A DNA stretch of 64,000 nucleotides from assembly GCA_024231025.1 (NCBI GenBank), contig JAAEQW010000274.1, forward strand, positions 1,615 to 65,614. Reading direction: 5' to 3'. Source of the stretch: Candidatus Omnitrophota bacterium (GTDB lineage: Bacteria > Omnitrophota > Gorgyraeia > Duberdicusellales > 4484-171). The notes under the pieces were generated by a model. It saw only the letters and a program-made list of their open reading frames with translations, was not told the origin of the DNA and ran no database searches. Both the position numbers and the translations under genes were made by a program. Shown here one piece after another: positions 1 to 60,983 of this stretch (positions within the stretch are counted from its first letter, which is position 1; each line of letters begins with the position of its first letter).

Positions 1-2919
1 CCTGATTGGAACACGCACCATAAATAGATTCTTAACCCGTTCAATCTGATCAGAAGAAGCCCTTCTCTTTTCAAGGTACTCCAACATAAAATTCTCAGCC
101 TTACCCGCTACAGTATCTCGCGTCAATTCAAGATCCAACCCTTCGGCCAAAAGAAGAACCGCCAAATACGCACATGCCAACTCAAGAGAAACCCCATGCT
201 TATTGTCTGCCTCCTGATTATCTTGATCATTAATCGGCAACAACTCTATCTTGGGATTTATCTGATCAATGACTCTATCAATTTGCCCAATAATATCTTC
301 CTCATTCTTTCCTGGAATCACACGTCCTTCCATCTCTTCAATCAGAGCAAAGAATATCCCTGCACGGCGAAATACTGCATACTGATCTTCGGTAGCAAAA
401 TGTATTGGCAAACGAGTATAAGGCACTTGTGGTTGCACCTGTCCTAATGGCAGTTTTAGAAACTCTTGAACATTAGCTTTTTTTGGCGACATACCAAAAA
501 AATCCACAATCTCTGCGTGACTATATCTTGGACAACCAAACCCTTCAGCCATTCGACAGGCAATCCTTTCTAAAGGACTAAACAATCCAGAAATCTCCTT
601 AAATCGCTCTAAGCTAAGCGGCATAAACCTTGAATCGTCATCACCTTCACTTTTTGTTGCTCCAATTTTTTCCGCCATAGAATCGAATACCTCTGCTAAA
701 GCTTGAAACCCAAGGTATGTTAAATTAGCTTCAGATAAGGCAAATTCTTTCGTTTTTTTTAATTGCTCTTTGTCCAAAGCTTTAGCGCTCTCTATCAAAC
801 TGGCAAGGGTTACTGCGCTTGAATATATATTAAGTAATTCGGTAGGAGTCGCTGTAGCTACTAACTTGAATAAATCTGGTCCATGAGAAGGATCTACCAA
901 GCTTGTTAAAGATAGAACTGCTCCTAAATCTGGTTCTACTGCTTTGGCCACAACAGTTTCCGTTATTTGTTTAGGACTACTTTTTTTTGATCGCTTAACC
1001 AACCGGGTGAACTCTCGATCCGCTTCACGAAAAATCTGCCGCTGCAGGATTCGTAATAAGTAATGTCGGCCCTGCGCGGTGGTTGAGTCAATAGATTCAA
1101 GATCATACGCCCAGCTTTCGTTCTGTGCCCGCAGCTTAGTGATTGCATAACTTACATCAATGAATTTGGCTTTATCTCCAACTAAAATTATCAATTCTTG
1201 CTTATCGCAATCAAATTGCATACCAAACTTTATTTCTGATCTCCATAAATAGTGCCCAATCTCATGAACCCGGGCAATAATATTTTTTGCGATCCGAATA
1301 TCGTAAGCAAGCAGCTTAGGACTGCAAGAAATAAACCCACGGTGGTTTCCTAAAGACTCATCGGAATCCTCGTAAAAAGATATTGGCACATTAGATGGAA
1401 AAAGATCAATTATTCCCTGAAGCAAGGATTTGTAGTCAGGAGAAGCAGCATCAACCATTTTTTTTCTTTCTTCTTTAGAAAAATTTGATTTAATTCGCCG
1501 CTCAAGAACTTTTAATTTAACTTTCCCCTTCTTAAATTTACTTCCCTTGGCAGGAGTAACTTCGGCAATAATAAAATGCGAATTTGCTTGTTCAAGATTT
1601 ATTTTCTCAAAATCATTACCAATAAAGTCTGAGCTTGCACTACCCTCTGGATGATCAAGTAAAGATAGAGGACCATTGTTTCCCAAAACCCGCAGATCTA
1701 CTTCGATTACGCCTGCCCCGGGTGCACCGTCATAACCGGGCATTGGTTTAGATGGGGTAGGGATCTGGGTAAAAACGGTTCCTCCGGAGAAGTATTTACG
1801 CCTTATGCGTTTGTTTGTAGGTGCGTTGTGGTCTTTTCTGATGTAGTTGTAGACACCTTTTTTGTAAGCCTGAAGATATTGGTTGTAAATCTTTTCTTTT
1901 ATTTTGGGGTCTGTGCCTTCGATCCCTTTGATTTTGTTTTTATCGAAATATACCTGATCCAATACCAATACTTCCGGGGACACGTACCGTTCTCGGCCTT
2001 CGGCCTGCGCTTCCGGTACATGTCCCCGTGTGTCAACTGAGCGCCGCAGGCGGCGCTTAAACCATGTGGCAAGAATTAAAGAATTGTAGATTTGCCGCAA
2101 ACGGGTAAATTGCTCTCCTTTGTTCACCTCTTCTTCAATTACAGGAAGAATGGTTTCTTTTGCGATTTGGGAAGAAACATTATCGGGCACGGCACGCCGT
2201 GCCCCTACGGGTTGGTTTATGGTCTGATTACGTTGCATAGCAACGTAATCTTCTTCCAACATAACTTTCAACGTCGCCTTACCAACAAACGCTTTGTTTT
2301 TATCCGTATAAATTAATACTTCATCTGGGGATATCCAAACTTTATTGAAAGTGTTAATGGGAATATCAGTAGTTTCGTAGAGATCTTGGGTTTTGGTATA
2401 AATTTTTTGCCAGTATTTTTTACCTAGGTCGCTTTCGGGATAAGTTAAAGAAGCGGACAATTGTTTTAGAATGTAGTCTTCGCCAAGGAGATCTCTTCCA
2501 ACGTCAGTTAAACCTAAATCATTAGGAGCAATCCTGTCTTCTTCGTATGGGGAAAGATTAACCCATAAATCCTCAGAAGGAATAGTAAGACCTGCTAAAA
2601 AATATCTGATCAACCTTTGGCTTTCCTCTTTAAATTCACTATCATTCAACTGGCGATCTCCTTCATCAATAATAAATCTGAATTTAAAAGGATCTTCGGG
2701 ATAAAACTCAATGCCTTGGATAGTTATTGGATGAATATGTTGACTGGTATTAATTAATTCGGTTGGCGCCGACATATAGGACAGGACAGAAGCATAGCCA
2801 ACACTAGCCTGATTTACGTAAATTGCTAACCCAGACAAAATCAGGCTACCGGCAAGAAAGACCCCTAAAGCTTTAAAACCAATACTAGCTTTGCGTTTTT
2901 GCAATAATTTTAAGATCAT
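1..2919 (-). CDS. Large membrane-anchored protein, partial (C-terminus runs off the window start). It has an N-terminal TM segment, a domain paralogous to the 59484-60983 protein, and a central HEIGH (HExxH) metallopeptidase-like motif.
   Basis: The minus-strand frame from ATG 2919 was checked codon by codon over 1201-1860, 2761-2919 and about 900-1260, with no stops. The HEIGHYLW motif is encoded at about 1230-1260. The DNA at 1840-1990 is near-identical to 59815-59940. The gene is absent from the ORF track only because it is truncated by the window edge. Confidence 0.5.
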   Translation of the reverse strand, partial: MILKLLQKRKASIGFKALGVFLAGSLILSGLAIYVNQASVGYASVLSYMSAPTELINTSQHIHPITIQGIEFYPEDPFKFRFIIDEGDRQLNDSEFKEESQRLIRYFLAGLTIPSEDLWVNLSPYEEDRIAPNDLGLTDVGRDLLGEDYILKQLSASLTYPESDLGKKYWQKIYTKTQDLYETTDIPINTFNKVWISPDEVLIYTDKNKAFVGKATLKVMLEEDYVAMQRNQTINQPVGARRAVPDNVSSQIAKETILPVIEEEVNKGEQFTRLRQIYNSLILATWFKRRLRRSVDTRGHVPEAQAEGRERYVSPEVLVLDQVYFDKNKIKGIEGTDPKIKEKIYNQYLQAYKKGVYNYIRKDHNAPTNKRIRRKYFSGGTVFTQIPTPSKPMPGYDGAPGAGVIEVDLRVLGNNGPLSLLDHPEGSASSDFIGNDFEKINLEQANSHFIIAEVTPAKGSKFKKGKVKLKVLERRIKSNFSKEERKKMVDAASPDYKSLLQGIIDLFPSNVPISFYEDSDESLGNHRGFISCSPKLLAYDIRIAKNIIARVHEIGHYLWRSEIKFGMQFDCDKQELIILVGDKAKFIDVSYAITKLRAQNESWAYDLESIDSTTAQGRHYLLRILQRQIFREADREFTRLVKRSKKSSPKQITETVVAKAVEPDLGAVLSLTSLVDPSHGPDLFKLVATATPTELLNIYSSAVTLASLIESAKALDKEQLKKTKEFALSEANLTYLGFQALAEVFDSMAEKIGATKSEGDDDSRFMPLSLERFKEISGLFSPLERIACRMAEGFGCPRYSHAEIVDFFGMSPKKANVQEFLKLPLGQVQPQVPYTRLPIHFATEDQYAVFRRAGIFFALIEEMEGRVIPGKNEEDIIGQIDRVIDQINPKIELLPINDQDNQEADNKHGVSLELACAYLAVLLLAEGLDLELTRDTVAGKAENFMLEYLEKRRASSDQIERVKNLFMVRVPIR

Positions 2920-4706: not shown

Positions 4707-5267
4707 ATGCAAGCTTGCATAAAAGGAAATCAATTTCTATTAGTTAAAGCTCATATAACAACAGTCTTTGGTAATGATGCTTTTAATAACGTGCTCGAGC
4801 AAATGCCACAGCACTGTGCTGCATCATTTAAAAAAATGATTAACAGCAGCTCATGGGTACCGGAAGAAGCTTTCGTAGAGCTTCTTGCAACAGCTGATAA
4901 AGTGTTGGGTAAGGGCGATTACAAATTATGTGAAGAATTGGGTAGCATTCTAGCAAAAGTAGGAATACCAAAGTTTTATAAAATTTTTATACAGTTCGGT
5001 AACCCCTCTTTTGTAATACAGAGAGCTCCCCGCTTTTGGAAACAACTACACAACACCGGACGCCTAGAAGTAATTGCCACCGCTAAAACATCTGTGATAG
5101 GTCGCTTAGTTGATAAAAGCCACCCCCACAAAGCTTTCTGCGCCAGTTTAATCGGTTACTTTAAGGCTACCCTTGAATTATGCGGAGCAACAAACATTTC
5201 TGTAGAAGAGCTTGAATGCGTTTGTAATGGAAACAGTTGCTGTGAATTCGCAGCTTCTTGGAAATAG
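4707..5267 (+). CDS. Hypothetical protein with a cysteine-rich C-terminus, possibly V4R/DUF2378-like.
   Basis: 186 aa ORF with a C-terminal CxCxGNSCC cluster and a tidy gene boundary. No firm family assignment is possible from sequence alone. Confidence 0.35.
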   Translation: MQACIKGNQFLLVKAHITTVFGNDAFNNVLEQMPQHCAASFKKMINSSSWVPEEAFVELLATADKVLGKGDYKLCEELGSILAKVGIPKFYKIFIQFGNPSFVIQRAPRFWKQLHNTGRLEVIATAKTSVIGRLVDKSHPHKAFCASLIGYFKATLELCGATNISVEELECVCNGNSCCEFAASWK

Positions 5268-5270
5268 TTC

Positions 5271-6080
5271 TTACCTTTGATCTCTTTCTACCTTTTCCGT
5301 ATCGATTATAACACAGACCGAACCAAGACCGGTTTCTAATCCTTCGTAGCGAAGCACCTCGTGAGGACTATTAGTTGTACACCAGAAATAGGTTGGCGGC
5401 ACAAGAGCGCTTGTCACTTTAGTTAAAATTCCAAAATCAGGAATAAGCCTAACCTTAATTGCTTCGATTGCGCCACTAGAATGATCCAAAGTTTCAATGC
5501 CTAAATCTTTTACGTTAATCTTGTATAACTTTGGTTCGCTTGAAACCAGATAGTACCGCAGGTGTTCTTTTTTGTCACGATTAGCAATGACCGCCTTTAA
5601 AAAAGGTCCCATCGTAAGATCGTCAACTGTTTTACCCTTTATAGGAAAAATTTTCTTTTTTATGACTTTGCCGTCTTTATTTGTGGCGCTGTAAAATATC
5701 CGCTTTTTGCGATAATCGTAAATCTTTTCATATTTGATGGCAACCGTTCCATCTTCATTCTTAATTGTTTGTGTGCTAAAATTTGGATACAAAAATCCGC
5801 CCCTTTCCACCACTTCAGCAACTGCGTCCCAAGTTACTTGTTTAAATTTTCCATAATCGCCCTTGCCATGTTGATTAATCTGATATATTGGTTGATTATT
5901 GCCGGGTAATTTTTTTATAGAAAAGGTGCGTTCAGAGCGCAGGTGCCCTGATTTTTTAGTAACGCAAATATCTTTGCCGTATTCAAAATCAAGTATAGAT
6001 GCACTTGACGGCTCCTGCGCATTCCCACTGATGGCTGTAGTCATAAAAAAAAGAGCTAAAAAAATCTTTAAGAAATACAT
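5271..6080 (-). CDS. Secreted hypothetical protein with an N-terminal signal peptide.
   Basis: The N-terminus MYFLKIFLALFFMTTAISGNAQE is signal-peptide-like. The remaining 269 aa are lysine-rich. Confidence 0.4.
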   Translation of the reverse strand: MYFLKIFLALFFMTTAISGNAQEPSSASILDFEYGKDICVTKKSGHLRSERTFSIKKLPGNNQPIYQINQHGKGDYGKFKQVTWDAVAEVVERGGFLYPNFSTQTIKNEDGTVAIKYEKIYDYRKKRIFYSATNKDGKVIKKKIFPIKGKTVDDLTMGPFLKAVIANRDKKEHLRYYLVSSEPKLYKINVKDLGIETLDHSSGAIEAIKVRLIPDFGILTKVTSALVPPTYFWCTTNSPHEVLRYEGLETGLGSVCVIIDTEKVERDQR

Positions 6081-6144: not shown

Positions 6145-6222
6145 ATTGTAGGGGCGGGCCCGTGTGTCCGCCCGTTATAATTCATTTTGTCCCGGGTCGA
6201 CACATAGGTCGACCCCTACAAT
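6145..6222. repeat. REP-like palindromic element, copy 1: TTGTAGGGG + hairpin, spacer, hairpin + CCCCTACAAT.
   Basis: GC-rich hairpins GGGGCGGGCC-cgtgt-GTCCGCCCG and CCCGGGTCGAC-acatag-GTCGACCC, flanked by inverted TTGTAGGGG/CCCCTACAA ends. Related copies lie at 41454-41660 and 60149-60251. Confidence 0.7.
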
Positions 6223-6277
6223 GTTTATTATTCCATGGATATGATTTGACATTATTACATAAATATAACCAGAAAGG

Positions 6278-8524: not shown

Positions 8525-9771
8525 TCCGTAGGGCCTCCTATTAAATCATAGCCATAAACATCAGTTATCCTTGTTTTATGAAAGGTGCCAATTTTAAGAT
8601 CTTTCATTTTTATAAACACTTCCCCATCCACTTCGTAAGCATCATATTGGGTTCTTCCCACAAAAACATCTTTTTCTTTTTCCTCGATTAAAACATCTAT
8701 TTCTTTACCCAAAAACTGGCTATTAACACTGTCTGCAATATTTTGCTGGCAACGCATAATTTCATTATAACGGCGATTTTTGCGCCTATAGTGCACCTGG
8801 TCAGAAAAACTATAGGCTGCAGTACCTTCTTCGCGTGAATATGCAAACGCCCCAAGCCTCTCAAAACGAACATCCTTAATGAATTCAAGCAATTCTTTGA
8901 ATTCGGCCTCCGTTTCTCCAGGAAAACCAACAATAACCGACGTTCGAAGAAAACAATTCGGAATTTTTCTGCGTATTTTACTGATTAAACGCTTAATTTG
9001 CGCTCTGGCTGTGCGTCGATTCATTAACTTTAAAAGTCTATCATTGATATGCTGAATAGGCAAATCAATATATTTGCATATTCTTTTCTCACTAGCGATC
9101 AATTCAATCAAAGAATCCTGCAAATGTTTTGGGTGAGTATAAAGAAGCCTTATCCACGGCATGTCCGCAGTTTTAATAATTTTTTTGAGCAAATCAGTAA
9201 GACCCGCTTTAGCAGACAAATCCTTTCCCCAACTGGTGATATCCTGGCCAATTAGATTAAGCTCTTTTACGCCCTTACCATTAAGTGTTCTTATTTCGTT
9301 AATAATTTCTTGCTGAGGCCTGCTTTTAAGCGAACCTTTTATTATCGGGATAGCGCAATAGCTACAATTATTACGACAACCTTCCGATATTTTTACAAAC
9401 TCCACATGCGATGGAAACAGCTTAATTCTCTTAGATGCTTTCTTTGTAAAGCCTTGCACTCCCTGCCATTGATCTACTTCGGGAAAGGCATCTTGAAGCT
9501 CTTTTTTGTATCTCTGCACCAGGCAACCGAAAACAATTAATCGTTTTATTTTGCCTTGTTTCTTTAGCTTAACTGCATCCCTTATGGCATGCACCGATTC
9601 CTGTTTAGCCTTGTCGATAAATCCACAAGTATTGATGGCCAGCACACCACAAGAGACTGCGTCCTGCTTTATTGCATAGCCTTCTAATGATAATTTTTTT
9701 GCAACAACTTCAGAATCATAGGTGTTTCGGAAACATCCCAAAGAAACTATAGAAAATGTATTTTTTGCCAT
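8521..9771 (-). CDS. rimO: Ribosomal protein S12 methylthiotransferase RimO (MiaB family).
   Basis: N-terminal MTTase domain, radical SAM CRNNCSYC motif and a C-terminal TRAM-like region. The likely start is the internal M (MAKNTFSIVSLGC); the track ORF extends to 9831. Confidence 0.8.
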   Translation of the reverse strand: MAKNTFSIVSLGCFRNTYDSEVVAKKLSLEGYAIKQDAVSCGVLAINTCGFIDKAKQESVHAIRDAVKLKKQGKIKRLIVFGCLVQRYKKELQDAFPEVDQWQGVQGFTKKASKRIKLFPSHVEFVKISEGCRNNCSYCAIPIIKGSLKSRPQQEIINEIRTLNGKGVKELNLIGQDITSWGKDLSAKAGLTDLLKKIIKTADMPWIRLLYTHPKHLQDSLIELIASEKRICKYIDLPIQHINDRLLKLMNRRTARAQIKRLISKIRRKIPNCFLRTSVIVGFPGETEAEFKELLEFIKDVRFERLGAFAYSREEGTAAYSFSDQVHYRRKNRRYNEIMRCQQNIADSVNSQFLGKEIDVLIEEKEKDVFVGRTQYDAYEVDGEVFIKMKDLKIGTFHKTRITDVYGYDLIGGPTE

Positions 9772-39989: not shown

Positions 39990-41246
39990 TTACCTGTTGC
40001 TACCCAAAACAACTAAGCCTTTAATTAAGTCGACTGCCCTTGTTATTTGATAATCTTTTTTGTAATCAAATTCTTTCTTAGGTTCTTCGCCAGATTCCTG
40101 ATTTTCTACTTTTTCAAAAACGTCTTTTTCTTTTTTTTCAATTTCTTTTTCCTCAATAATTTTAAGCTCTACTTCAACATCAGGATCAATTCCCTTTTCA
40201 TGAATGCTTGTTCCATTTGGCGTATAGTATTTTGAGGTTGTAAGCCGAAGTGCGGAGCCATCAGAAAGCGGCAATATTGTTTGAACCGAACCTTTACCAA
40301 AAGTTGTTTCTCCTAAAAGAATACCTCTTTTATTTTCACGAAGTGCAGCGGCAAGAATTTCACTACCCGAAGCGCTCCCCTTGTTAATTAGAATAACTAT
40401 TGGAATATCTAAATATTTTTCTTTGATTGGTGAGGTTTTATACACCTTTTCTTTTTGTTCTCTTGTCTTAGTTGATACAACGGTTTTACCATTTTCCAAA
40501 AATCTGCTGGTTACTTCAATCGCTGAATAAAGTAAGCCGCCGGGATTATTTCTAACGTCAATTATCAACCCCTTAAGGCCTTCTGCCTTAAGCTTGCGCA
40601 ATGCTTTATCTAAATCGTTTGTTGTGGTTTCTCTAAACTCAGCTATTCTTAAATAACCGATGCCATCTTCTAGGATCATCGCTCGCTTGATATCCTTTAT
40701 TTTTATTATACCCCTAGTAACAGTCACTTCTTCTAGGCTCTTAGTTTTATCTTTTAGAAGCACTAAATCAACATTCGTTTCAGGCTCACCGCGCAACTTC
40801 TTTACTGCTTCGTTTAAGGTAATGCCTTTTGTTAGCTCACCGTCAATCTTAACAATAATATCACCCGCTTCTAATCCGGCCCGCCAAGCAGGAGTGTCCT
40901 CGATCGGAGTAACTATCGTTAAAAATCGTTCCTTTATTGTTATCTCTATTCCTAATCCGCCAAATTGACCTTCTGTTTCAACAAGTAAATCCTTGTAATC
41001 TTCAGGCGTAAGAAATTGACTATATGAATCAAGCGATGAAAGTAAACCCTCCATCGCGCCATAAATCAGATCTTGTGCAGTTTTATCTTCAACGTGTTTT
41101 TTCTCGATTACTGATAATCCTTCGGCAAAAAGATCAAGTTCCTTATAAAACTCTTCTCTTTCATTGCCCAAAGAATACCCCACCCAATAAGAAGAAAACG
41201 AAGTTAATACAAGGATTATAACAATCGCGGTGATTTTCTTTTTCAT
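39990..41246 (-). CDS. ctp: Carboxyl-terminal processing protease (S41 family, PDZ domain).
   Basis: PDZ domain (GDIIVKIDG), catalytic GSASGSEI and an N-terminal signal anchor. Confidence 0.85.
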   Translation of the reverse strand: MKKKITAIVIILVLTSFSSYWVGYSLGNEREEFYKELDLFAEGLSVIEKKHVEDKTAQDLIYGAMEGLLSSLDSYSQFLTPEDYKDLLVETEGQFGGLGIEITIKERFLTIVTPIEDTPAWRAGLEAGDIIVKIDGELTKGITLNEAVKKLRGEPETNVDLVLLKDKTKSLEEVTVTRGIIKIKDIKRAMILEDGIGYLRIAEFRETTTNDLDKALRKLKAEGLKGLIIDVRNNPGGLLYSAIEVTSRFLENGKTVVSTKTREQKEKVYKTSPIKEKYLDIPIVILINKGSASGSEILAAALRENKRGILLGETTFGKGSVQTILPLSDGSALRLTTSKYYTPNGTSIHEKGIDPDVEVELKIIEEKEIEKKEKDVFEKVENQESGEEPKKEFDYKKDYQITRAVDLIKGLVVLGSNR

Positions 41247-41453
41247 CTTTACCTCCTATACTTGTGCTTGATAAATATCATATTTTTAAAGGCTATTCCA
41301 AGCGCCATAATCATTCCCTTATTTTAATTGATCTTCTCTTTTTGTAAAGGAATTTCCTAAATAGGCGTTTTCCACGAAATACATTGCAAACAACCCTGGA
41401 AACTGGGAGAATGATGAAGAAAATATGTTTGGTGAATATAAAAATGTAAATGT

Positions 41454-41660
41454 CGTAGGGGCGGGCCTTGTGTCCGCCCGTGATAATATAAAATTGTCAA
41501 TAATCGGTAAATAATTGACGATCGGTTGTAATACCTAGCCATATCCATGACATAGTAAATATTGTAGGGGCGGGGTCTCCCCGCCCGGATAAAATGTCAT
41601 TGAATATCGACAATCAAAATAATTATGACAACGGGCACGGAAAACGTGCCCCTACAATTG
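41454..41660. repeat. Cluster of three REP-like hairpins upstream of the TA/RAYT locus (a BIME-like array).
   Basis: Hairpins GGGGCGGGCC-ttgt-GTCCGCCCG, TTGTAGGGGCGGGG-tct-CCCCGCCC and GGGCACG-gaaaa-CGTGCCCCTACAATTG. The stem sequences differ but pairing is preserved. Confidence 0.7.
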
Positions 41661-41693
41661 GGAATTGGTCGAAAATAATATTAAAAATTACTT

Positions 41694-41728
41694 TGACATC
41701 ACGTACGAAATATGGTACGATTTATATG
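41694..41728 (+). promoter_or_regulatory. Promoter and operator of the yefM-yoeB operon.
   Basis: TTGACA, a 17-nt spacer and TACGAT. A direct repeat GTACGA-N6-GTACGA overlaps the spacer, and a GGAGGTG RBS lies upstream of the ATG at 41742. Confidence 0.55.
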
Positions 41729-41741
41729 GAGGTGAGTTAGT

Positions 41742-41984
41742 ATGACAACATTAACGGCCAGTGAGGCGCGAGCAAAGCTGTATAAGCTATTGGACAAAGC
41801 GGCTCTATCGCATGAGCCCATACAAATTACCGGTAAAAGGCATAATGCCGTATTAATCTCAGAAGATGACTGGCGTGCAATAAACGAAACGCTATATTTG
41901 CTTTCTGTTCCGAAAATGAGGGAATCTATCCGAGAAGGCCTGAAAACCCCTATCAAAAAGTGCAATAAAAGATTGAAGTGGTAG
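41742..41984 (+). CDS. yefM: Antitoxin, Phd/YefM family.
   Basis: MTTLTASEARAKLYKLLD...PIQITGKRHNAVLISEDDWRAINETLYLL. Confidence 0.8.
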   Translation: MTTLTASEARAKLYKLLDKAALSHEPIQITGKRHNAVLISEDDWRAINETLYLLSVPKMRESIREGLKTPIKKCNKRLKW

Positions 41985-42244
41985 ACTGGAAACTAGTTTA
42001 TACAAAACAAGCCCAAAAGGATGCGAAAAAACTATCATCTGCTGGTTTACGCCTAAAAGCAGAGACCCTTCTCAAAGTCGTAAGAAAAAACCCTTTCCAG
42101 GCCCCTCCTCCATTCGAAAAGCTAATTGGCGACCTAGAAGGCGCATATTCTCGCAGAATAAATATCAAGCATCGTCTTGTGTATCAAGTGCTAAAAAAGT
42201 ATAAAACAGTAAAAATTATTCGAATGTGGACGCATTACGAATAA
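41978..42244 (+). CDS. yoeB: Toxin YoeB (Txe family mRNA interferase).
   Basis: W..VYTKQAQKDAKKL...IKHRLVYQV...IIRMWTHYE, overlapping the yefM stop. Confidence 0.85.
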   Translation: MVDWKLVYTKQAQKDAKKLSSAGLRLKAETLLKVVRKNPFQAPPPFEKLIGDLEGAYSRRINIKHRLVYQVLKKYKTVKIIRMWTHYE

Positions 42245-42317
42245 CTAAAATACACACCGACGCAGTTCGGCTGCGCCCAGGGCAGCTGAGTTTGGGTGTT
42301 ATGTTGAATGAATAAAA

Positions 42318-42872
42318 ATGACATACACATTTAAATCCCGTAAAACAATAAGGCTGAAGAACCACGACTATTCAAAGCAAGGGTATTACCATGTTACAAT
42401 CTGCACATATAACCATCTAGAAACCTTTGGTATAATCGAGAATAATAAAATGGCGTTAAACCAATGCGGCGAGATTGTGAAAAATGCCTGGTTAGACCTA
42501 CCTAATCACCATAAAAATATTGAATTAGATGAATTTATCGTTATGCCTAATCATATACATGGAATAATCAACGTCGTTGCAGGGGCCGGGCCTGCCCGGC
42601 CCTCTAATAAAAATACGAAAAATAATAATTTGTCCATTATAATTGGATCATATAAATCCACGGTCACAAAACAAATCAATAAATTAAATAATAATTCATT
42701 CAAATGGCAGCGTTCTTTCCACGATGAGGTTATCCGTACCAGCAATCGCTCTCTATATAATTCACGTCATTATATTGTAAATAATCCTGCAACATGGGAT
42801 AATGATGAAAATAATATTAAAAATTATTCTGTAAAGGGCGAGGCAGGCCTCGCCCCTGCAACTACGTTTTGA
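42318..42872 (+). mobile_element. REP-associated tyrosine transposase (RAYT, IS200/IS605-like TnpA_REP).
   Basis: HxH motif (MPNHIHGII) and a C-terminal Y-containing region. The gene is flanked by REP hairpins upstream (41454-41660) and downstream (42838-42925). REP-like GC hairpins are even embedded in its own coding sequence (42582-42608). Confidence 0.8.
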
Positions 42873-42905
42873 TAAAATATATAGGGGCCTAACAAAAACC
42901 ATCCC

Positions 42906-43610
42906 CTACGATTTTGAAACTACGCCCACTAACACTTCTTCGTCTGCTAAATACATTACTAGATTCAAAAAATCTTGTTTCGTGGAAAATTTTACATTTT
43001 CATATATCGCCTGCAAAGGTCTTTTACCGTTAAAATACCCTAATAGATAGGTAATTTGTTTTTTGTCGTAGCTCAGCCCCATCAAAGAAACTCTTTTCTC
43101 TTTACAAGAGGTAACATCTTTAAATACTAGTTCGGTTGCGTTTTTTGTCTTTAGCGTTTTCCTTAACTCCAGATATGGATTAAACAAAAAAATCGCCGAA
43201 AACGGAAGCGCTCCATTAAAAAAACATTGCTGAGCGCTATCGTCTACCGTCTCATCAAGCGAACAAACTGGTTCTAATTTATAGCCGCTATCGCACATAA
43301 AATTTCTACAAACTATCGGACGCGTATTATAAATTGTGCAGCGGTTTTCGTCATCGAGATAGGTGCATGATCCGTTCTTTTTTTTCTTCAGGCGATACGC
43401 TCGATTAAAACAATGCTCACTCGTTTTAAGGCAAATCTTCTTATCGCGAGAACAAAAACTTTCAGATTTGTATATTTTTTGCTTGTGTTCTTGCGCGGCA
43501 AGATTTATATCCCATCCTTTACAACACATTGCCCCACAAATAGATAGATCGCATCCTTTGTTTTGAAAATATACTTTGTGCTGTGTGGGATCAAGCTTGA
43601 TAGGGTTCAT
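42906..43610 (-). CDS. YkgJ-family cysteine-cluster (CxxCxxCC) protein with an extra C-terminal domain.
   Basis: N-terminal CDLSICGAMCCKGW and further Cys pairs. Confidence 0.5.
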   Translation of the reverse strand: MNPIKLDPTQHKVYFQNKGCDLSICGAMCCKGWDINLAAQEHKQKIYKSESFCSRDKKICLKTSEHCFNRAYRLKKKKNGSCTYLDDENRCTIYNTRPIVCRNFMCDSGYKLEPVCSLDETVDDSAQQCFFNGALPFSAIFLFNPYLELRKTLKTKNATELVFKDVTSCKEKRVSLMGLSYDKKQITYLLGYFNGKRPLQAIYENVKFSTKQDFLNLVMYLADEEVLVGVVSKS

Positions 43611-57900: not shown

Positions 57901-59527
57901 ATAGCTCTTTGGATAATCTTGAAAGAACATCAAAATCTTGATCATTACGCAACAGTTGTAAAAAGTCGTCGAGAAATCCTTTTGCAGCAGGATTAATCCA
58001 AACTGATGCAGAGATTGCCGCGCTACGAACTTCGCCATCTTGCGAAGAATCTTTCGCTATTCTAAGCAATTCTTTGGTTAATTTTTTCTTTAAAGTAAAA
58101 CCAACATTCTTTGCTAAAAGACCTAAATTATCTATAACCACCTGGCGAAAACCCGCCGGCTCAGAAGTGCTATTTGCTATGGCTCTCAAACCCTCAATGA
58201 GATTAGTCATTTCTTTTAATATTTTTTTTGCCTCAAGGCTATTCTTATTAGATTCGCTTTGATAAGCCTGAATCATTATTTTTTTTGCCATATAAAGCGC
58301 TCTAAGGCGAATTTTTGGATTTTGAATTGGTTCTTGGGCGATATCACCTAAAGACTGCGCAACTTCTTTCAACGCACCCCAAGATTCTCCATCAATAATC
58401 TCTCGTAATAATTTCGCAACCATTTCACGAAAAGCAACTTCCTGAGAATCGCTAGATAACTCTTGCATAATTGAAAGAAATACATCAATCACTTCTAACT
58501 TACGCGATAAGGAAAACCTATAAACATCTTTAAGAAATGTTTTATCAAAAATAATTGCTGCAATTTCACGAATAACAGGATCTAAAGACGAATCGTTAAG
58601 CAAAGGCAGCAAATCTAAAATTGCTTTTTCTTTTCTTGAACGTTTTTGATTCTTGATCAATTCACCCCAAGAAGCTAAGGCCTCGGCACGAATAACTGGC
58701 TTTGCGCCTTCGTCACAGACAACATTATAAAGTACAGAAATAAGTTCTTGTCTGCGCTTGAAACCAATTTTGCTTTTTAGAGAAGAAAAAGTTATTCGCA
58801 AAGCAAGAACACCAAACGCCTCAACAGATGAACTTTGCAATTGCCCTTTTACTACCTCAATAAGATCGTTGAAAACATTCTGCTGTGCGTCTAGCTCCAT
58901 ATCTTTCAGTATTTTCTCTAGTGTTGGTCCAAAGAAATCAGCAATGGACCAAAAAGCAGAATTACGCTTTAATTCAACTATAAAAAAGGAAACTAGTCTT
59001 TCTTTAAATTCATTTGAAAATTTATCGACCCCTGAATCCAAAATATCAAGCAATGCCGCGCTGATATCCCTTCTTATAATTTGAATCGACGTAGAAATGC
59101 CCGGATTTTTTAGCGACTCCTCTAGCGAACCTAAAAGAACAATGGCTATCCGCTCTCTAGTAGCTAAATCTACTTTTGCTCGTAAAATCATTAAAGAATC
59201 TGTAGCCGCCGTGATAAGAACTTGAGATTGAGGATAGTCTTTTATTATGCTAAGAAAAAGATCAACGATCTCCTTTGACGGTGAAATAACAATCTCGCTC
59301 AAAAGCTTCATGGCTTTTACCCGTTGATCCAAACTTGAAAAAATATCATCTTTTACTATTCCGATAAGAACTGGAGTAATTTCTTTGGCAAGATCTTCAT
59401 CAACTTGGGCAGGATTAAGATCTAACACATCCTCTCTTAAGGTAACTTCTTCTTCAGGCGCAAAACGCTCAACGGCTTGCGAATTAGAGAGTTCTTTCAA
59501 GCTTGAGGCGCAACCAAACACCATCAC
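54971..59527 (-). CDS. Giant (1518 aa) HEAT/ARM-repeat protein with a KR-rich linker and a C-terminal degenerate HExxH-like domain (DHEYTE).
   Basis: Long alpha-helical repeat region with no stops. The C-terminal segment aligns with the HEIGH region of the 1-2919 protein but reads IDHEYTERIEG. The 3' end of the ORF (about 55040-55150) runs through GC-rich REP-like hairpins. Confidence 0.5.
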   Translation of the reverse strand: MMVFGCASSLKELSNSQAVERFAPEEEVTLREDVLDLNPAQVDEDLAKEITPVLIGIVKDDIFSSLDQRVKAMKLLSEIVISPSKEIVDLFLSIIKDYPQSQVLITAATDSLMILRAKVDLATRERIAIVLLGSLEESLKNPGISTSIQIIRRDISAALLDILDSGVDKFSNEFKERLVSFFIVELKRNSAFWSIADFFGPTLEKILKDMELDAQQNVFNDLIEVVKGQLQSSSVEAFGVLALRITFSSLKSKIGFKRRQELISVLYNVVCDEGAKPVIRAEALASWGELIKNQKRSRKEKAILDLLPLLNDSSLDPVIREIAAIIFDKTFLKDVYRFSLSRKLEVIDVFLSIMQELSSDSQEVAFREMVAKLLREIIDGESWGALKEVAQSLGDIAQEPIQNPKIRLRALYMAKKIMIQAYQSESNKNSLEAKKILKEMTNLIEGLRAIANSTSEPAGFRQVVIDNLGLLAKNVGFTLKKKLTKELLRIAKDSSQDGEVRSAAISASVWINPAAKGFLDDFLQLLRNDQDFDVLSRLSKELSKIAKVLKGEKNKNRRTEIVVAIGLHGLLAKEEYVRDVAAMAMEGLCSTQVKARVIEQKLIPMLITAINQGNSFATIGLGHIFADIYEDLSTTIAEDVFSSAMKTLKHNDSKMRFMAIEGLGNMFKKPVTDSTTFKSMRQKAALALIDSLEDNKKKNRDRSRMRLTEMGSILTVEVFKIFIETLASENKELNQKTAKLVIEVMSGAHLRDIEYLRDVLVPPFLKSLQGKTNHGNISSGFRLIGDTLFEKLFRALESENKELREAASRVLYVIAMKLNYEQMEEVTSTLDPFWQNIFWRSSEIGRGNFSIDEVRAVYLNSAFIAKTLPLAFSKKYANQFSLAKSVVLLLERFDIQLSTEDNYNLRQAIAIEKALFFIVETFDEANKRRALIQKGSSVYAYTHVDKDFTGEQLEDIVKPLGVTIDQENRFEGVEDKIKFLEKTVPNIPINDKNNVLWHHKHGGPEHLWLRGGKLGREVSDKMEHPWAISYQEYGEALMKRAAKVGTLSDLVIIIGACYSANFAVKLVNYLFDALEEGSIKDFPTIVVTSSRDSFSYITIFEKAFSLVVKKKVASSGNKELTLEDVRAVEEVKGVVRYEDVIIFLPVNSKRYKRLKQEIGVKEGANNTKRKRSQEKNKHRNKKRKKQRGRAQPIPLGEQPSEGIKKSDIFHLNVPVIDVVKLEDEGKVKNFPVALKRPSRRVGDVAKPKFTDDQFNALINPERELSFDKNELVKFLKSPLVGMEDADKLDKQKINVYLSDHLPETMDAAGRKEIDGTLSIILNSNYINQDNFTFFALGEVIDHEYTERIEGQPHHVAAQRQKKYFSQNETQLTLYHAWVIEQMSVEQLLEIVDEYENHKKNEWGRYEEMFYSHVKEELSSAVSARVARNQNAGASSKTIISGGIDLNSEMIEIDEERSGSFVSSGDAHRSPTLSGLPCPSGRQAVHVPVVAQEFIDIDPAAITGFRLEITRIRRKSKPY

Positions 59528-60983
59528 AGCTACAGCAAAATAAAAAAATTCCGGCGTTACGTAGCGATTTTTTCTTATCGTGTTTAGGCTCCTCCTTTAA
59601 CCCGCTGTCCACCGCATAAGTATCGGCAGGTTTACTTTGGCGAAGAAACTCACCGTTTGCATCAATGCCTGAAATCGGTCCGTTAGCTTTAGTGGAAATA
59701 ACCGAATTGATTGGTTCTTCAACTTCTTGCAGGCATTGTTCGTTTTCTCTTGCGTCAAAACCACCGGAATAATAACGCCGGTTAATTTTGCGATTTAATT
59801 TTTCGTCAAAATCAGGTCGAATATAATTATAAACGCCCTTTTTGTAGGCCTCGACATATTGATTGTAGATCTTTTCTTTTATTTGGGGATCCGTGCCTTC
59901 GATCCCTTTGATTTTGTTTTTATCGAAATATATCTTGTCTAATATATTTTTGTTTTTATCCCGGGAGGACACAAGGCCCTCCCCTACTGAGCGGCGAAGC
60001 CGTTTTTTAAACCATGTAGCAAGGATTAAGGCATTATAAATTTGGCGCAGGCGCGCAAATTGCTGGCCCTTGTTGATTTCTTCTTCAATCACCGGCAAAA
60101 TCATTTCCTTTGCAATCTGGGCGGATAATTTGTTGATATTATGATCATTTGTAGGGGCGGACCTATGTGTCCGCCCGTTATGATTAATTATATGATTATC
60201 GTATAATTCATTATTTTGACCCGGGTCGACACATAGGTCGACCCCTACAATATTTTGTTTTTGGGCAACATAGTCACTCTCCATCATCACCTTGAAACTG
60301 CTTTCTTTAACGAAAGCGCGATTGCCTTCAACTGAAACAACTGCTTTATCGGGGATAATCCAAATTTTGTTAAAGGTATCAATCGCAATGTTGGTTGTGC
60401 CGTAAAGCTCATTAGCGCGAGCGTAAATTTTCTTCCAGAATTTTTTGCCTAAAGGGCTTTCTGGATAAGTCAAAGAAGCGGTCAATTGTTTTAAAATATA
60501 ATCCTCACCCAAAAGATCGCGCCCCATGTCAGTTAACCCTAATTCGTGAGGAGTTACTCTATCTTTCTCATAGGGAGAAAGATTCACCCATAAGTCTTGT
60601 GCTGGAGTAGTTAATGAAGCTAAAAAATATTTAATCAATCGATGTGCTTCAATCTTAAATTCCTGATCATCTACGGCAGTATCGCCCTCATCAAGAGTAA
60701 AACGAAAAGCGAAAGGATCGTTGGGAAAAAATTCTAAACCACGCAATAATATTGGATTAAAATGCGAACTAGTCTCAATAATTTTTGTTGGAGCCGACAT
60801 ATAGGGCAAGGCAGAGGCATAGCTTGTATTTGTCTTAACAAAATAGGCAGCAACCGTCGAAAACAAAATGGCTAAAATCACAAAGCCAACGATTGCCTTA
60901 AAAGAGATTGATCCTTTTTTCCGCTGTATAAAAATTCCCATAATGATATACCTGTAACTTAGACTATCATTTAAATGTAACAT
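59484..60983 (-). CDS. Membrane-anchored protein paralogous to the N-terminal 500 aa of the 1-2919 gene. It may be the frameshifted 5' part of a single gene with 54971-59527.
   Basis: DNA at 59815-59940 is near-identical to 1840-1990. The protein motifs YMSAPT, VNLSPYE, GLTD(V/M)GRDLLGEDYILKQL and KNKIKGIEGTDP(K/Q)IKEKIYNQY are shared. It overlaps the next ORF by 44 nt. Confidence 0.5.
   Translation of the reverse strand: MLHLNDSLSYRYIIMGIFIQRKKGSISFKAIVGFVILAILFSTVAAYFVKTNTSYASALPYMSAPTKIIETSSHFNPILLRGLEFFPNDPFAFRFTLDEGDTAVDDQEFKIEAHRLIKYFLASLTTPAQDLWVNLSPYEKDRVTPHELGLTDMGRDLLGEDYILKQLTASLTYPESPLGKKFWKKIYARANELYGTTNIAIDTFNKIWIIPDKAVVSVEGNRAFVKESSFKVMMESDYVAQKQNIVGVDLCVDPGQNNELYDNHIINHNGRTHRSAPTNDHNINKLSAQIAKEMILPVIEEEINKGQQFARLRQIYNALILATWFKKRLRRSVGEGLVSSRDKNKNILDKIYFDKNKIKGIEGTDPQIKEKIYNQYVEAYKKGVYNYIRPDFDEKLNRKINRRYYSGGFDARENEQCLQEVEEPINSVISTKANGPISGIDANGEFLRQSKPADTYAVDSGLKEEPKHDKKKSLRNAGIFLFCCSCDGVWLRLKLERTL
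60149..60251. repeat. REP-like element inserted in-frame within the 59484-60983 coding sequence.
   Basis: TTGTAGGGGCGGACC-tatgt-GTCCGCCCG ... CCCGGGTCGAC-acatag-GTCGACCCCTACAAT. The ORF stays open and the element is translated as ...NHNGRTHRSAPTNDH... Confidence 0.65.

Follow-up and report, generated by a model that had tools for sequence, protein, structure and literature searches.

A putative subclass 2.4 RAYT gene with two in-frame REP hairpins and upstream RAYT relics in Candidatus Omnitrophota

Results

A RAYT locus in Candidatus Omnitrophota DNA

The stretch of DNA analyzed here, called the window, is 64 kb of Candidatus Omnitrophota (Omnitrophica) DNA, the group that gave its best protein matches, and all counts of repetitive extragenic palindromes (REPs) given below cover this 64 kb. 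Its G+C content is 37.5%, in keeping with the low-GC background given in an earlier note on the sequence. The gene of interest encodes a predicted REP-associated tyrosine transposase (RAYT) of 184 residues, and two GC-rich hairpins, hp1 and hp2, lie in frame within its open reading frame (ORF). Upstream are a yefM-yoeB toxin-antitoxin pair and, farther out, three REPs embedded in decayed fragments of other RAYT genes, whereas further REPs, either single or as REP doublets (REPINs), are found elsewhere in the window (Table 1). One intact RAYT copy plus relics is present in the window; RAYTs typically occur as a single intact copy per genome and are inherited vertically.

Table 1 Features of the RAYT locus and REP units in the window
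Feature	Positions	Strand	Details
Intact RAYT gene, predicted TnpAREP-like Y1 HUH nuclease	42318..42872	+	184 aa; H79, H81, W130-Q131, Y152; NHIH, WQ, YIVNNP
hp1, in-gene REP gcagGGGCCGGGCctGCCCGGCCC	42579..42602	+	Perfect 9-bp stem, 2-nt loop
hp2, in-gene REP GGGCGAGGCagGCCTCGCCCctgc	42836..42859	-	Perfect 9-bp stem, 2-nt loop; inverted partner of hp1
Relic fragment A of a RAYT gene	41371..41478	+	Y-motif and C-terminal part, ~residues 149-181; KYIANNPGNWENDEENMFGEYKNVNVVGAGLVSA; KYIANNPGNWENDEEN..VVGAGLVSA
REP unit gtagGGGCGGGCcttgtGTCCGCCC	41455..41479	+	8-bp stem with one mismatch, 5-nt loop; at fragment A/B junction
Relic fragment B of a RAYT gene	41525..41665	+	Degenerate HUH motif and following loop with REP doublet; VVIPSHIHDIVNIVGAGSPRP...GHGKRAPT
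REPIN-like doublet TTGTAGGGGCGGGGtctCCCCGCCC ... GGGCACGgaaaaCGTGCCCCTACAA	41562..41658	.	Units 41564-41586 (+) gtagGGGCGGGGtctCCCCGCCC and 41633-41655 (-) GGGCACGgaaaaCGTGCCCctac
Relic fragment C of a RAYT gene, PYNWELVENNIKNY	41650..41694	+	~RAYT residues 157-170; abuts foot of REP 41633-41655
yefM/phd antitoxin gene, 80 aa	41742..41984	+	PF02604 E 3.8e-19, 68.7 bits vs cutoff 29.8; TIGR01552 match
yoeB/txe toxin gene, 88 aa	41978..42244	+	TIGR02116 E 7.6e-27, 93.3 bits vs cutoff 51.8; PF06769 match
Imperfect palindrome just before RAYT start codon	42254..42300	+	Weak fold, z -0.96
Degenerate REP-like relic (aTAGGGGCC...CCCCTAC)	42880..42909	.	4-6-bp pairing; weak fold, z -1.45
Single REP gtagGGGCACGGCgtGCCGTGCCC	2185..2208	-	9-bp stem, 2-nt loop; in frame in paralogous long ORF running off window start
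Intergenic REPIN-like doublet	6146..6224	.	Units 6148-6173 (+) and 6194-6219 (-)
Single REP	59963..59987	-	In frame in 499-aa ORF 59484-60983 (-); peptide VGEGLVSSR
REPIN-like doublet	60149..60250	.	In frame in 499-aa ORF 59484-60983 (-); peptide VGVDLCVDP...GRTHRSAPT

The 184-residue protein is a predicted Y1 HUH nuclease

The 184-residue ORF and its sequence MPNHIHGII, both reported in the earlier note, are present, and MPNHIHGII carries the HUH residues H79-I80-H81. Homologs of the protein numbered 1757, and in our alignment (A1) H79 and Y152 are invariant and H81 is nearly so. When a profile built from 30 family members was compared with the PDB sequences, the only match was E. coli TnpAREP (4ER8, E 9.7e-4). 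The HUH strand aligned onto LPEHMHCIW of that protein and the profile segment 'reYiinnp' onto 'DYIYINP', which places Y152 on the catalytic Y115. In the AlphaFold2 model (pLDDT 77, pTM 0.71) strands and helices follow one another as expected, with the HUH motif in modelled strand 79-86 and Y152 in modelled helix 143-162. Upon a Foldseek search of the PDB all 30 hits at E<=1e-3 were ISDra2, IS608, IS200, Sulfolobus TnpA or TnpAREP proteins; the best E-value was 1.4e-6 and the highest query TM-score, 0.50, was that of TnpAREP 4ER8. The motif, the aligned catalytic tyrosine and the modelled fold indicate that the ORF encodes a Y1 HUH nuclease having the IS200/IS605 TnpA fold, and the RAYT reading first made from the DNA letters agrees with these alignments and with the structural matches to IS200/IS605 proteins and TnpAREP.

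Given this fold, the protein can be placed among the described RAYT groups. TnpA_Y1 subclass 2.4 (Quentin et al. 2018, BMC Genomics 19:475, PMC6006769), which is RAYT Group 4 of Bertels et al. (2017, PMC5581495), is characterized by proteins of ~194 aa having the motifs NH[IFV]H, WQ and YIxNNP and a variable beta3-alphaC insert, and lacking a C-terminal extension (PMC6006769). The window protein has N78-H-I-H81, W130-Q131 and Y152-I-V-N-N-P157, and hp1 provides the variable beta3-alphaC insertion with an in-frame REP. The protein fits every sequence criterion of subclass 2.4/RAYT Group 4. REPs inserted within tnpAREP genes were described as noteworthy and peculiar to this subclass, in which the in-gene hairpins were interpreted as peripheral-loop insertions and some REPs are 'double-foot', with GT[AG]G on both strands (PMC6006769).

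The part of the protein upstream of these motifs contains residues R8, R12, Y18, G22 and C29, which are conserved in homologs. A database entry, GY858_06615 (hypothetical protein, 140 aa), is 100% identical to the window RAYT over 140 aa, and this public annotation appears to begin 44 codons late (window 42318-42450).

GTAG-tagged hairpins are far in excess of chance

We searched the window for GTAG tags with a GC-rich hairpin no more than 1 nt after them; stems of >=6 bp counted if perfect, and those of >=8 bp also with one mismatch. Nine such units were observed, whereas 100 simulated order-2 Markov sequences contained 0.11 on average and never more than one; the GC-rich hairpins are real and far above chance. 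Permitting GCAG as the tag gave two further units, both within the 184-residue RAYT ORF, for a total of 11. As the nine GTAG units fall at six separate places (2185, 6148/6194, 41455, 41564/41633, 59963 and 60151/60223), the REPs are dispersed and not restricted to the RAYT locus. They form three singles and three doublets, the latter being inverted pairs with a short spacer as expected of REPINs (6146-6224, 41562-41658 and 60149-60250). REPINs have a high genomic copy number and form a population. Six of the 11 units lie in frame within ORFs: two in the RAYT gene, three in the 499-aa ORF at 59484-60983 and one in the paralog of that ORF. No match was obtained when 40900-43300 was compared with Rfam at E<=1, and the hairpins are not a curated RNA family.

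The units have in common a GTAG/CTAC foot and a GGG...CCC stem base, lack T-tracts and are present in both orientations, TTGTAGGGG... and ...CCCCTACAA. The tails had earlier been described as all CCCCTACAA-like, which holds for one orientation; units in the other are of the form TTGTAGGGG... and the in-gene units have GCAG/CTGC. A stem GGGTCGAC/GTCGACCC had been placed within 41454-42925 but is instead found at 6194-6219 and 60223-60248, in the doublets at 6146-6224 and 60149-60250. The earlier note named two things that would refute its reading: hairpins unique to the window and absent elsewhere in the genome, or a transposase without the catalytic tyrosine on alignment. Neither was seen: hairpins recur away from the locus within the window (2185, 6148/6194, 59963 and 60151/60223) and the tyrosine aligns.

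The in-gene hairpins are an inverted pair with compensatory stem changes

Hairpins inside the RAYT coding sequence had been claimed, and two perfect 9-bp stems are indeed there. The start of hp2 lies 257 nt after that of hp1, which leaves a spacer of ~233 nt, far longer than in the REPIN doublets, and the two carry the tags GCAG/CTGC instead of GTAG/CTAC. Together with the preceding codon, that of V87, hp1 encodes VAGAGPARP (residues 87-95), the loop directly after the HUH strand, between modelled strand 79-86 and helix 104-122. The hp2 sequence encodes G174-A181 of a predicted disordered C-terminal tail (pLDDT <50). Residues 89-101 and 172-184, the hp1- and hp2-coded stretches, are the only low-confidence segments of the model longer than three residues. 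When the region 42565-42875 was folded, hp1 and hp2 formed a long-range pairing with z -5.06.

A metagenome scan gave only 19 loci, many of them redundant, and the covariation sets therefore comprise 12-14 distinct genes having ~55-86% protein identity to the window gene. The positions of both hairpins are kept among these relatives, the distance between the two starts being 245-281 nt overall and 257 nt in the closest of them. For hp1 97.2% of the cells are paired and five of the nine pairs show double-sided changes; the covariation score was 0.466 versus 0.167 for shuffled alignments, none of 500 shuffles (which ignore kinship) reached it, and slid registers gave <=0.146. The values for hp2 are 96.0% paired cells, double changes in four of nine pairs and a score of 0.369 versus 0.154, again reached in none of 500 shuffles, which likewise ignore kinship. 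The encoded peptides vary (for example, VAGAGPARP, VGDGHAHP, VGTGHALS and VGNRPACS). Selection on structure rather than on sequence, proposed from a comparison of the stems in the window, is borne out by these compensatory changes, and in orthologous copies of the in-gene stems, not solely in paralogous repeats.

The coupled change of tags to GCAG/CTGC was considered as a sign of the long-range pairing of hp1 with hp2 and was not used. One relative (L108) has GTAG with CTGC, and the coupling is probably a single clade event.

The upstream REPs lie in relics of other RAYT copies

Three GC-rich hairpins had been reported upstream of the gene, and all three were found, 660-860 nt before it, at 41455-41479, 41564-41586 and 41633-41655. 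A flanking of the gene by REP arrays had been read into them; the REPs are indeed upstream, but the yefM-yoeB pair separates them from the gene and they sit in relics of other RAYT copies, both of which had been missed. Fragment A was found by tblastn of family proteins against 41200-41760 (a small search) at 51-57% identity with E ~2e-8, and a scan for the YIxxNP motif agrees. By tblastn fragment B is 56% identical to residues 73-117 of homolog P0090 (E 9e-14) and fragment C gave 80% identity over 15 aa (E ~3e-7). By these matches, the upstream 'array' consists of REPs that persist in the remains of other, decayed RAYT genes. As the REP at 41455-41479 stands at the fragment A/B junction, so the REP at 41633-41655 is located at the junction of B with C. 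REP feet at the relic breakpoints would fit REP cutting and rejoining in vivo, although the junctions are only three. The 25-mer at 41455-41479 is identical to the in-gene REP of a member of another Omnitrophota RAYT subfamily (locus L078), and its junction with 'NIKLDEF' is also present in locus L081.

The yefM-yoeB pair (41742-42244) stands between the upstream hairpins and the intact RAYT gene; yoeB overlaps yefM by 7 nt and a promoter-like site precedes yefM at 41693-41721. We rejected the pair as a part of the REPtron: a toxin-antitoxin pair stands beside the RAYT gene in none of seven relatives' loci, which makes it a locus-specific neighbor.

Immediate flanks of the gene

Two hairpins had also been described downstream of the gene. 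One of these is real and forms the 3' end of the coding sequence (hp2), whereas the second, at 42880-42909, is degenerate (z -1.45). The GTAG foot of this relic on the minus strand (42906-42909) is the TAG stop of a convergent gene encoding a CxxCxxCC-domain protein at 42906-43610 (-).

A second kind of palindrome, TCTAACAAA..CCAGCGG..CCGCTGAT..TGTTAGA (also written TCTAACAAA..ATCCAGCGG - loop - CCGCTGAT..TGTTAGA), adjoins the RAYT gene in the window (42254-42300) and in the related loci L100 (5934-5985 and 6580-6640), L101 (~110-185) and L097 (~4300). The upstream copy in L100 has z -4.6. The palindrome is absent in L105 and L107 and vestigial in L106, and neither the rest of the window nor the other loci yielded a further copy. 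It may act as an end-like element of the RAYT gene unit or in its regulation.

Related loci

A scan of species-representative genomes gave 80 related loci, from Omnitrophota, Patescibacteria, Bacteroidota, Chloroflexota, Cyanobacteria, Nitrosomonas, Leptospiraceae and other groups. The relatives include those of Microcystis, Planktothrix, Bacteroidota and Actinobacillus, which fits the published host range of subclass 2.4. Of the 80 loci, 57 have a GTAG hairpin within the RAYT-like ORF, usually 33-120 nt past the first base of the HUH motif; some are single units, others double-foot palindromes or doublets. Because the identical hairpin recurs just outside the gene in many loci (for example, L007, L011, L012, L021, L040, L063 and L075), the in-gene REP is of the genome's own REP type. 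Five relatives (L100, L101, L102, L081 and L090) have the in-gene hairpin pair intact and have no extragenic tagged hairpin with a GGG...CCC stem within ~4-6 kb on each side; the only extragenic hit among them was one GTAG hairpin of different sequence in L100.

Seven relatives' loci lie in unrelated neighborhoods, which include glycosyltransferase and radical-SAM genes, the region downstream of recG, a type II secretion cluster, the region upstream of gidA and the xseA/xseB pair. DNA similarity to the window ends on the left at ~42280-42316, ~2-36 nt from the start codon, and on the right at 42879-42881, ~9 nt past the stop. In L107 the RAYT homolog (4994-5577) lies between xseA and xseB, in L106 (1160-1740) just upstream of gidA and in L105 (4967-5589) within the type II secretion cluster. 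The gaps where the gene abuts its neighbors in these three loci are 6-34 nt, which looks like the insertion of a compact unit. An Omnitrophota contig (L002) has two near-identical RAYT copies 7.4 kb apart (1690-2118 and 9123-9524). Both have an in-gene hairpin pair, with slight differences from one copy to the other.

Decayed RAYT variants recur across metagenome samples (L091/L092/L093/L095 and L081-L086). In L081-L086 a 5'-truncated RAYT is fused to a similar REP at the 'NIKLDEF' position, giving an intact chimeric ORF of 157 aa, and in L091, L093 and L095 a 101-nt deletion removes the HUH motif and shifts the frame. We considered this deletion as REP-directed and rejected that view: its junction has a short direct-repeat microhomology (AAnCAA) 13 nt from the REP, and slippage fits better.

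REPs within other ORFs of the window

The REP at 2185 has the geometry of the in-gene hp1/hp2 pair. Compared with 12 aligned homologs, the REP at 59963 encodes an inserted segment, VGEGLVSSR, that is absent from 11; the twelfth (P0128) has its own insertion at the site. The host ORFs, 59484-60983 (-) and 1-~2950 (-), are paralogs in a large family of hypothetical proteins that is apparently Omnitrophota-specific; the family had 1305 matches at E<=1e-10, with a conserved N-terminal region of ~400 aa and widely variable homolog lengths, and the 499-aa paralog gave no match in a Pfam or NCBIfam scan. Both paralogs have palindromic insertions at the same two sites, the second of which holds a REP in one paralog and a different long palindrome (GGGGACACGTACCG...CCGGTACATGTCCCC, ~1975-2030) in the other.

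Discussion

The locus is very probably a TnpA_Y1 subclass 2.4/RAYT Group 4 REPtron of Candidatus Omnitrophota, consisting of a RAYT gene with two in-frame REPs and upstream RAYT relics. This assignment draws on what was observed here, namely the motifs, the fold, the REP excess, the in-frame positions, the compensatory stems and the relics. Catalysis and REP mobilization we infer from the literature on E. coli TnpAREP and IS608 TnpA (PMC3479197, PMC6006769). By analogy with those enzymes, the single-domain HUH/Y1 nuclease would bind GC-rich REP hairpins in single-stranded DNA and read the GTAG tetranucleotide at the hairpin foot. Y152 would then cut and rejoin the strand by way of a covalent 5'-phosphotyrosine link, H79 and H81 would hold the metal ion, and such activity would spread and rearrange REPs and REP doublets. 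The inverted in-frame REPs would be tolerated, hp1 in a variable surface loop that links the HUH strand to the helix after it and hp2 in the disordered C-terminal tail.

Several points weigh against this assignment. Sequence-profile membership appears sub-threshold: NCBIfam NF047646 (REP_Tyr_transpos) matched the protein with E 2.8e-12 but at 46.7 bits, below the curated cutoff of 80, and Pfam PF01797 (Y1_Tnp) gave no hit for the window protein at E<=0.01. Some homologs have precomputed PF01797 hits, which are 'faint' wherever their strength is shown. The cited literature reports no activity for any subclass 2.4 member, the feet of hp1 and hp2 (GCAG/CTGC) are non-canonical relative to GT[AG]G, and the REP copy number is a count within 64 kb only. 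Moreover, the upstream REPs differ from hp1 and hp2 in stem and loop geometry, and several REPs of the window, those with an 8-bp stem and a 5-6-nt loop, are nearer to the in-gene REP of the L048/L078 subfamily than to hp1 and hp2. Because of this difference in geometry, and because one upstream REP matches exactly the one within the L078 gene, no REP type can be firmly assigned to the enzyme as its cognate family.

That the hairpins are intrinsic terminators or chance GC-rich palindromes having nothing to do with the transposase is effectively refuted. Some units do stand at gene ends, such as 42880-42909, and a generic scan gave three terminator-like sites in the locus, but no REP unit coincides with any of them. 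The chance expectation of 0.11 units per window, the common foot and stem base without T-tracts, the inverted doublets, the in-frame position of six of the 11 units and the tracking of RAYT genes by the motif across phyla all speak against this explanation. Another proposal, which we consider unlikely, is that in this Omnitrophota subfamily selection keeps the in-gene inverted REP pair as a cis element, so that it is more than an insertion that is tolerated. It could be an autoregulatory or self-recognition site acting in single-stranded DNA or mRNA, an attenuator of transcription or translation, or a resident 'seed' REPIN that gives rise to the dispersed copies. In its favor, the orthologous positions of hp1 and hp2 are kept, with compensatory changes, at ~55-86% protein identity, the pair brackets the half of the gene that encodes the catalytic tyrosine, and it is intact in the five relatives that have no nearby extragenic GGG...CCC REP. 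Its arms are capable of long-range pairing (z -5.06), and in the closest clade each of the two sites has a changed tetranucleotide, GCAG for GTAG and CTGC for CTAC. However, the pair may persist because the enzyme and all REPs evolve together, or because REPs elsewhere in each genome convert it repeatedly, and the coupled tag change, probably a single clade event, is broken in L108. About 29% of the family genes have no detectable in-gene hairpin, REPs in frame in unrelated genes demonstrate that plain tolerated insertion occurs, and such hairpins have been read as peripheral-loop insertions (PMC6006769).

A still-mobile IS200-like insertion sequence, a compact one-gene unit rather than a domesticated immobile RAYT, is in our view quite improbable, despite the scatter of close relatives (62-86% identity) over seven unrelated neighborhoods, some of them wedged into operons (xseA/xseB in L107, gidA in L106). 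DNA homology that ends near the start and stop codons, the relic and truncated copies, the two copies within 12 kb of L002 and the palindromes flanking the gene in L100 and L101 would also suit such a unit. Against mobility, the homology boundaries have no conserved left- or right-end hairpins, the flanking palindrome is missing from L105 and L107 and vestigial in L106, and no identical multi-copy insertions were seen. As the compared genomes are of different species, the differing contexts could result from rearrangement or from old horizontal transfer.

Taken as a subclass 2.4 REPtron, the locus extends the arrangement of REPs within their own transposase gene to Candidatus Omnitrophota, and it is a further case of an arrangement described for this subclass in 2018. 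The in-gene REPs, which had been singled out as striking, are real but already published for subclass 2.4. Before PMC6006769, Di Nocera et al. (2013, PMC3733652) had reported GTAG-tagged REPs inside unrelated genes and GTAG feet that give TAG stops. The discovery is accordingly modest, the class, the mechanism by analogy, the in-gene REPs and the in-frame REPs in other genes all having been published. What remains of interest is that the inverted pair is conserved within the gene and that REPs stand where the RAYT relics join. The comparative set, whose orthologous in-gene hairpins undergo compensatory substitution as their encoded peptides drift, could serve questions of RAYT-REP co-evolution and of the function of in-gene copies.

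Comparison with known systems

The closest known relatives are the subclass 2.4 RAYTs, with which the window protein shares the NHIH, WQ and YIVNNP motifs, a length near 190 aa, the absence of a C-terminal extension domain and the variable insert between beta3 (the HUH strand) and alphaC; the family is likewise scattered across many phyla and has double-foot REPs among its members. Omnitrophota are named nowhere in PMC6006769 (0 occurrences). Unlike the hairpins described there, the partner REP of the window subfamily encodes the C-terminal tail, so that the two inverted units stand on either side of the Y-motif half of the gene and not together in the loop. The in-gene tags of the window are GCAG/CTGC, and the locus adds RAYT relics and a toxin-antitoxin module.

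E. coli TnpAREP and its REPs, which form bacterial interspersed mosaic elements (4ER8; Messing et al. 2012, PMC3479197; subclass 2.2/Group 2), resemble the window system in the HUH/Y1 fold (TM-score 0.50) and in having GTAG-tagged hairpins in inverted pairs. The sequence similarity is marginal (profile E 9.7e-4), however, and the E. coli protein has DHLH, WE and YIHYNP motifs plus a C-terminal extension, whereas its REPs are longer, bulged and strictly extragenic. With the IS200/IS605 elements (IS608 and ISDra2), which gave the best Foldseek E-values, the window protein shares the Y1 HUH fold, and these elements too recognize hairpins in single-stranded DNA. In contrast to them, the window gene is not bounded by subterminal left- and right-end hairpins and has no tnpB, and the window hairpins are dispersed GTAG-tagged REPs in both orientations. 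Finally, the REPs in the window resemble the intragenic GTAG/CGTC REPs and the Rickettsia palindromic elements (PMC3733652) in lying in frame as singles or dimers that add short extra peptides and in having GTAG feet that supply TAG stops to adjacent ORFs. The published hosts are mostly replication and repair genes, whereas those of the window are an Omnitrophota-specific hypothetical family and the RAYT gene itself.

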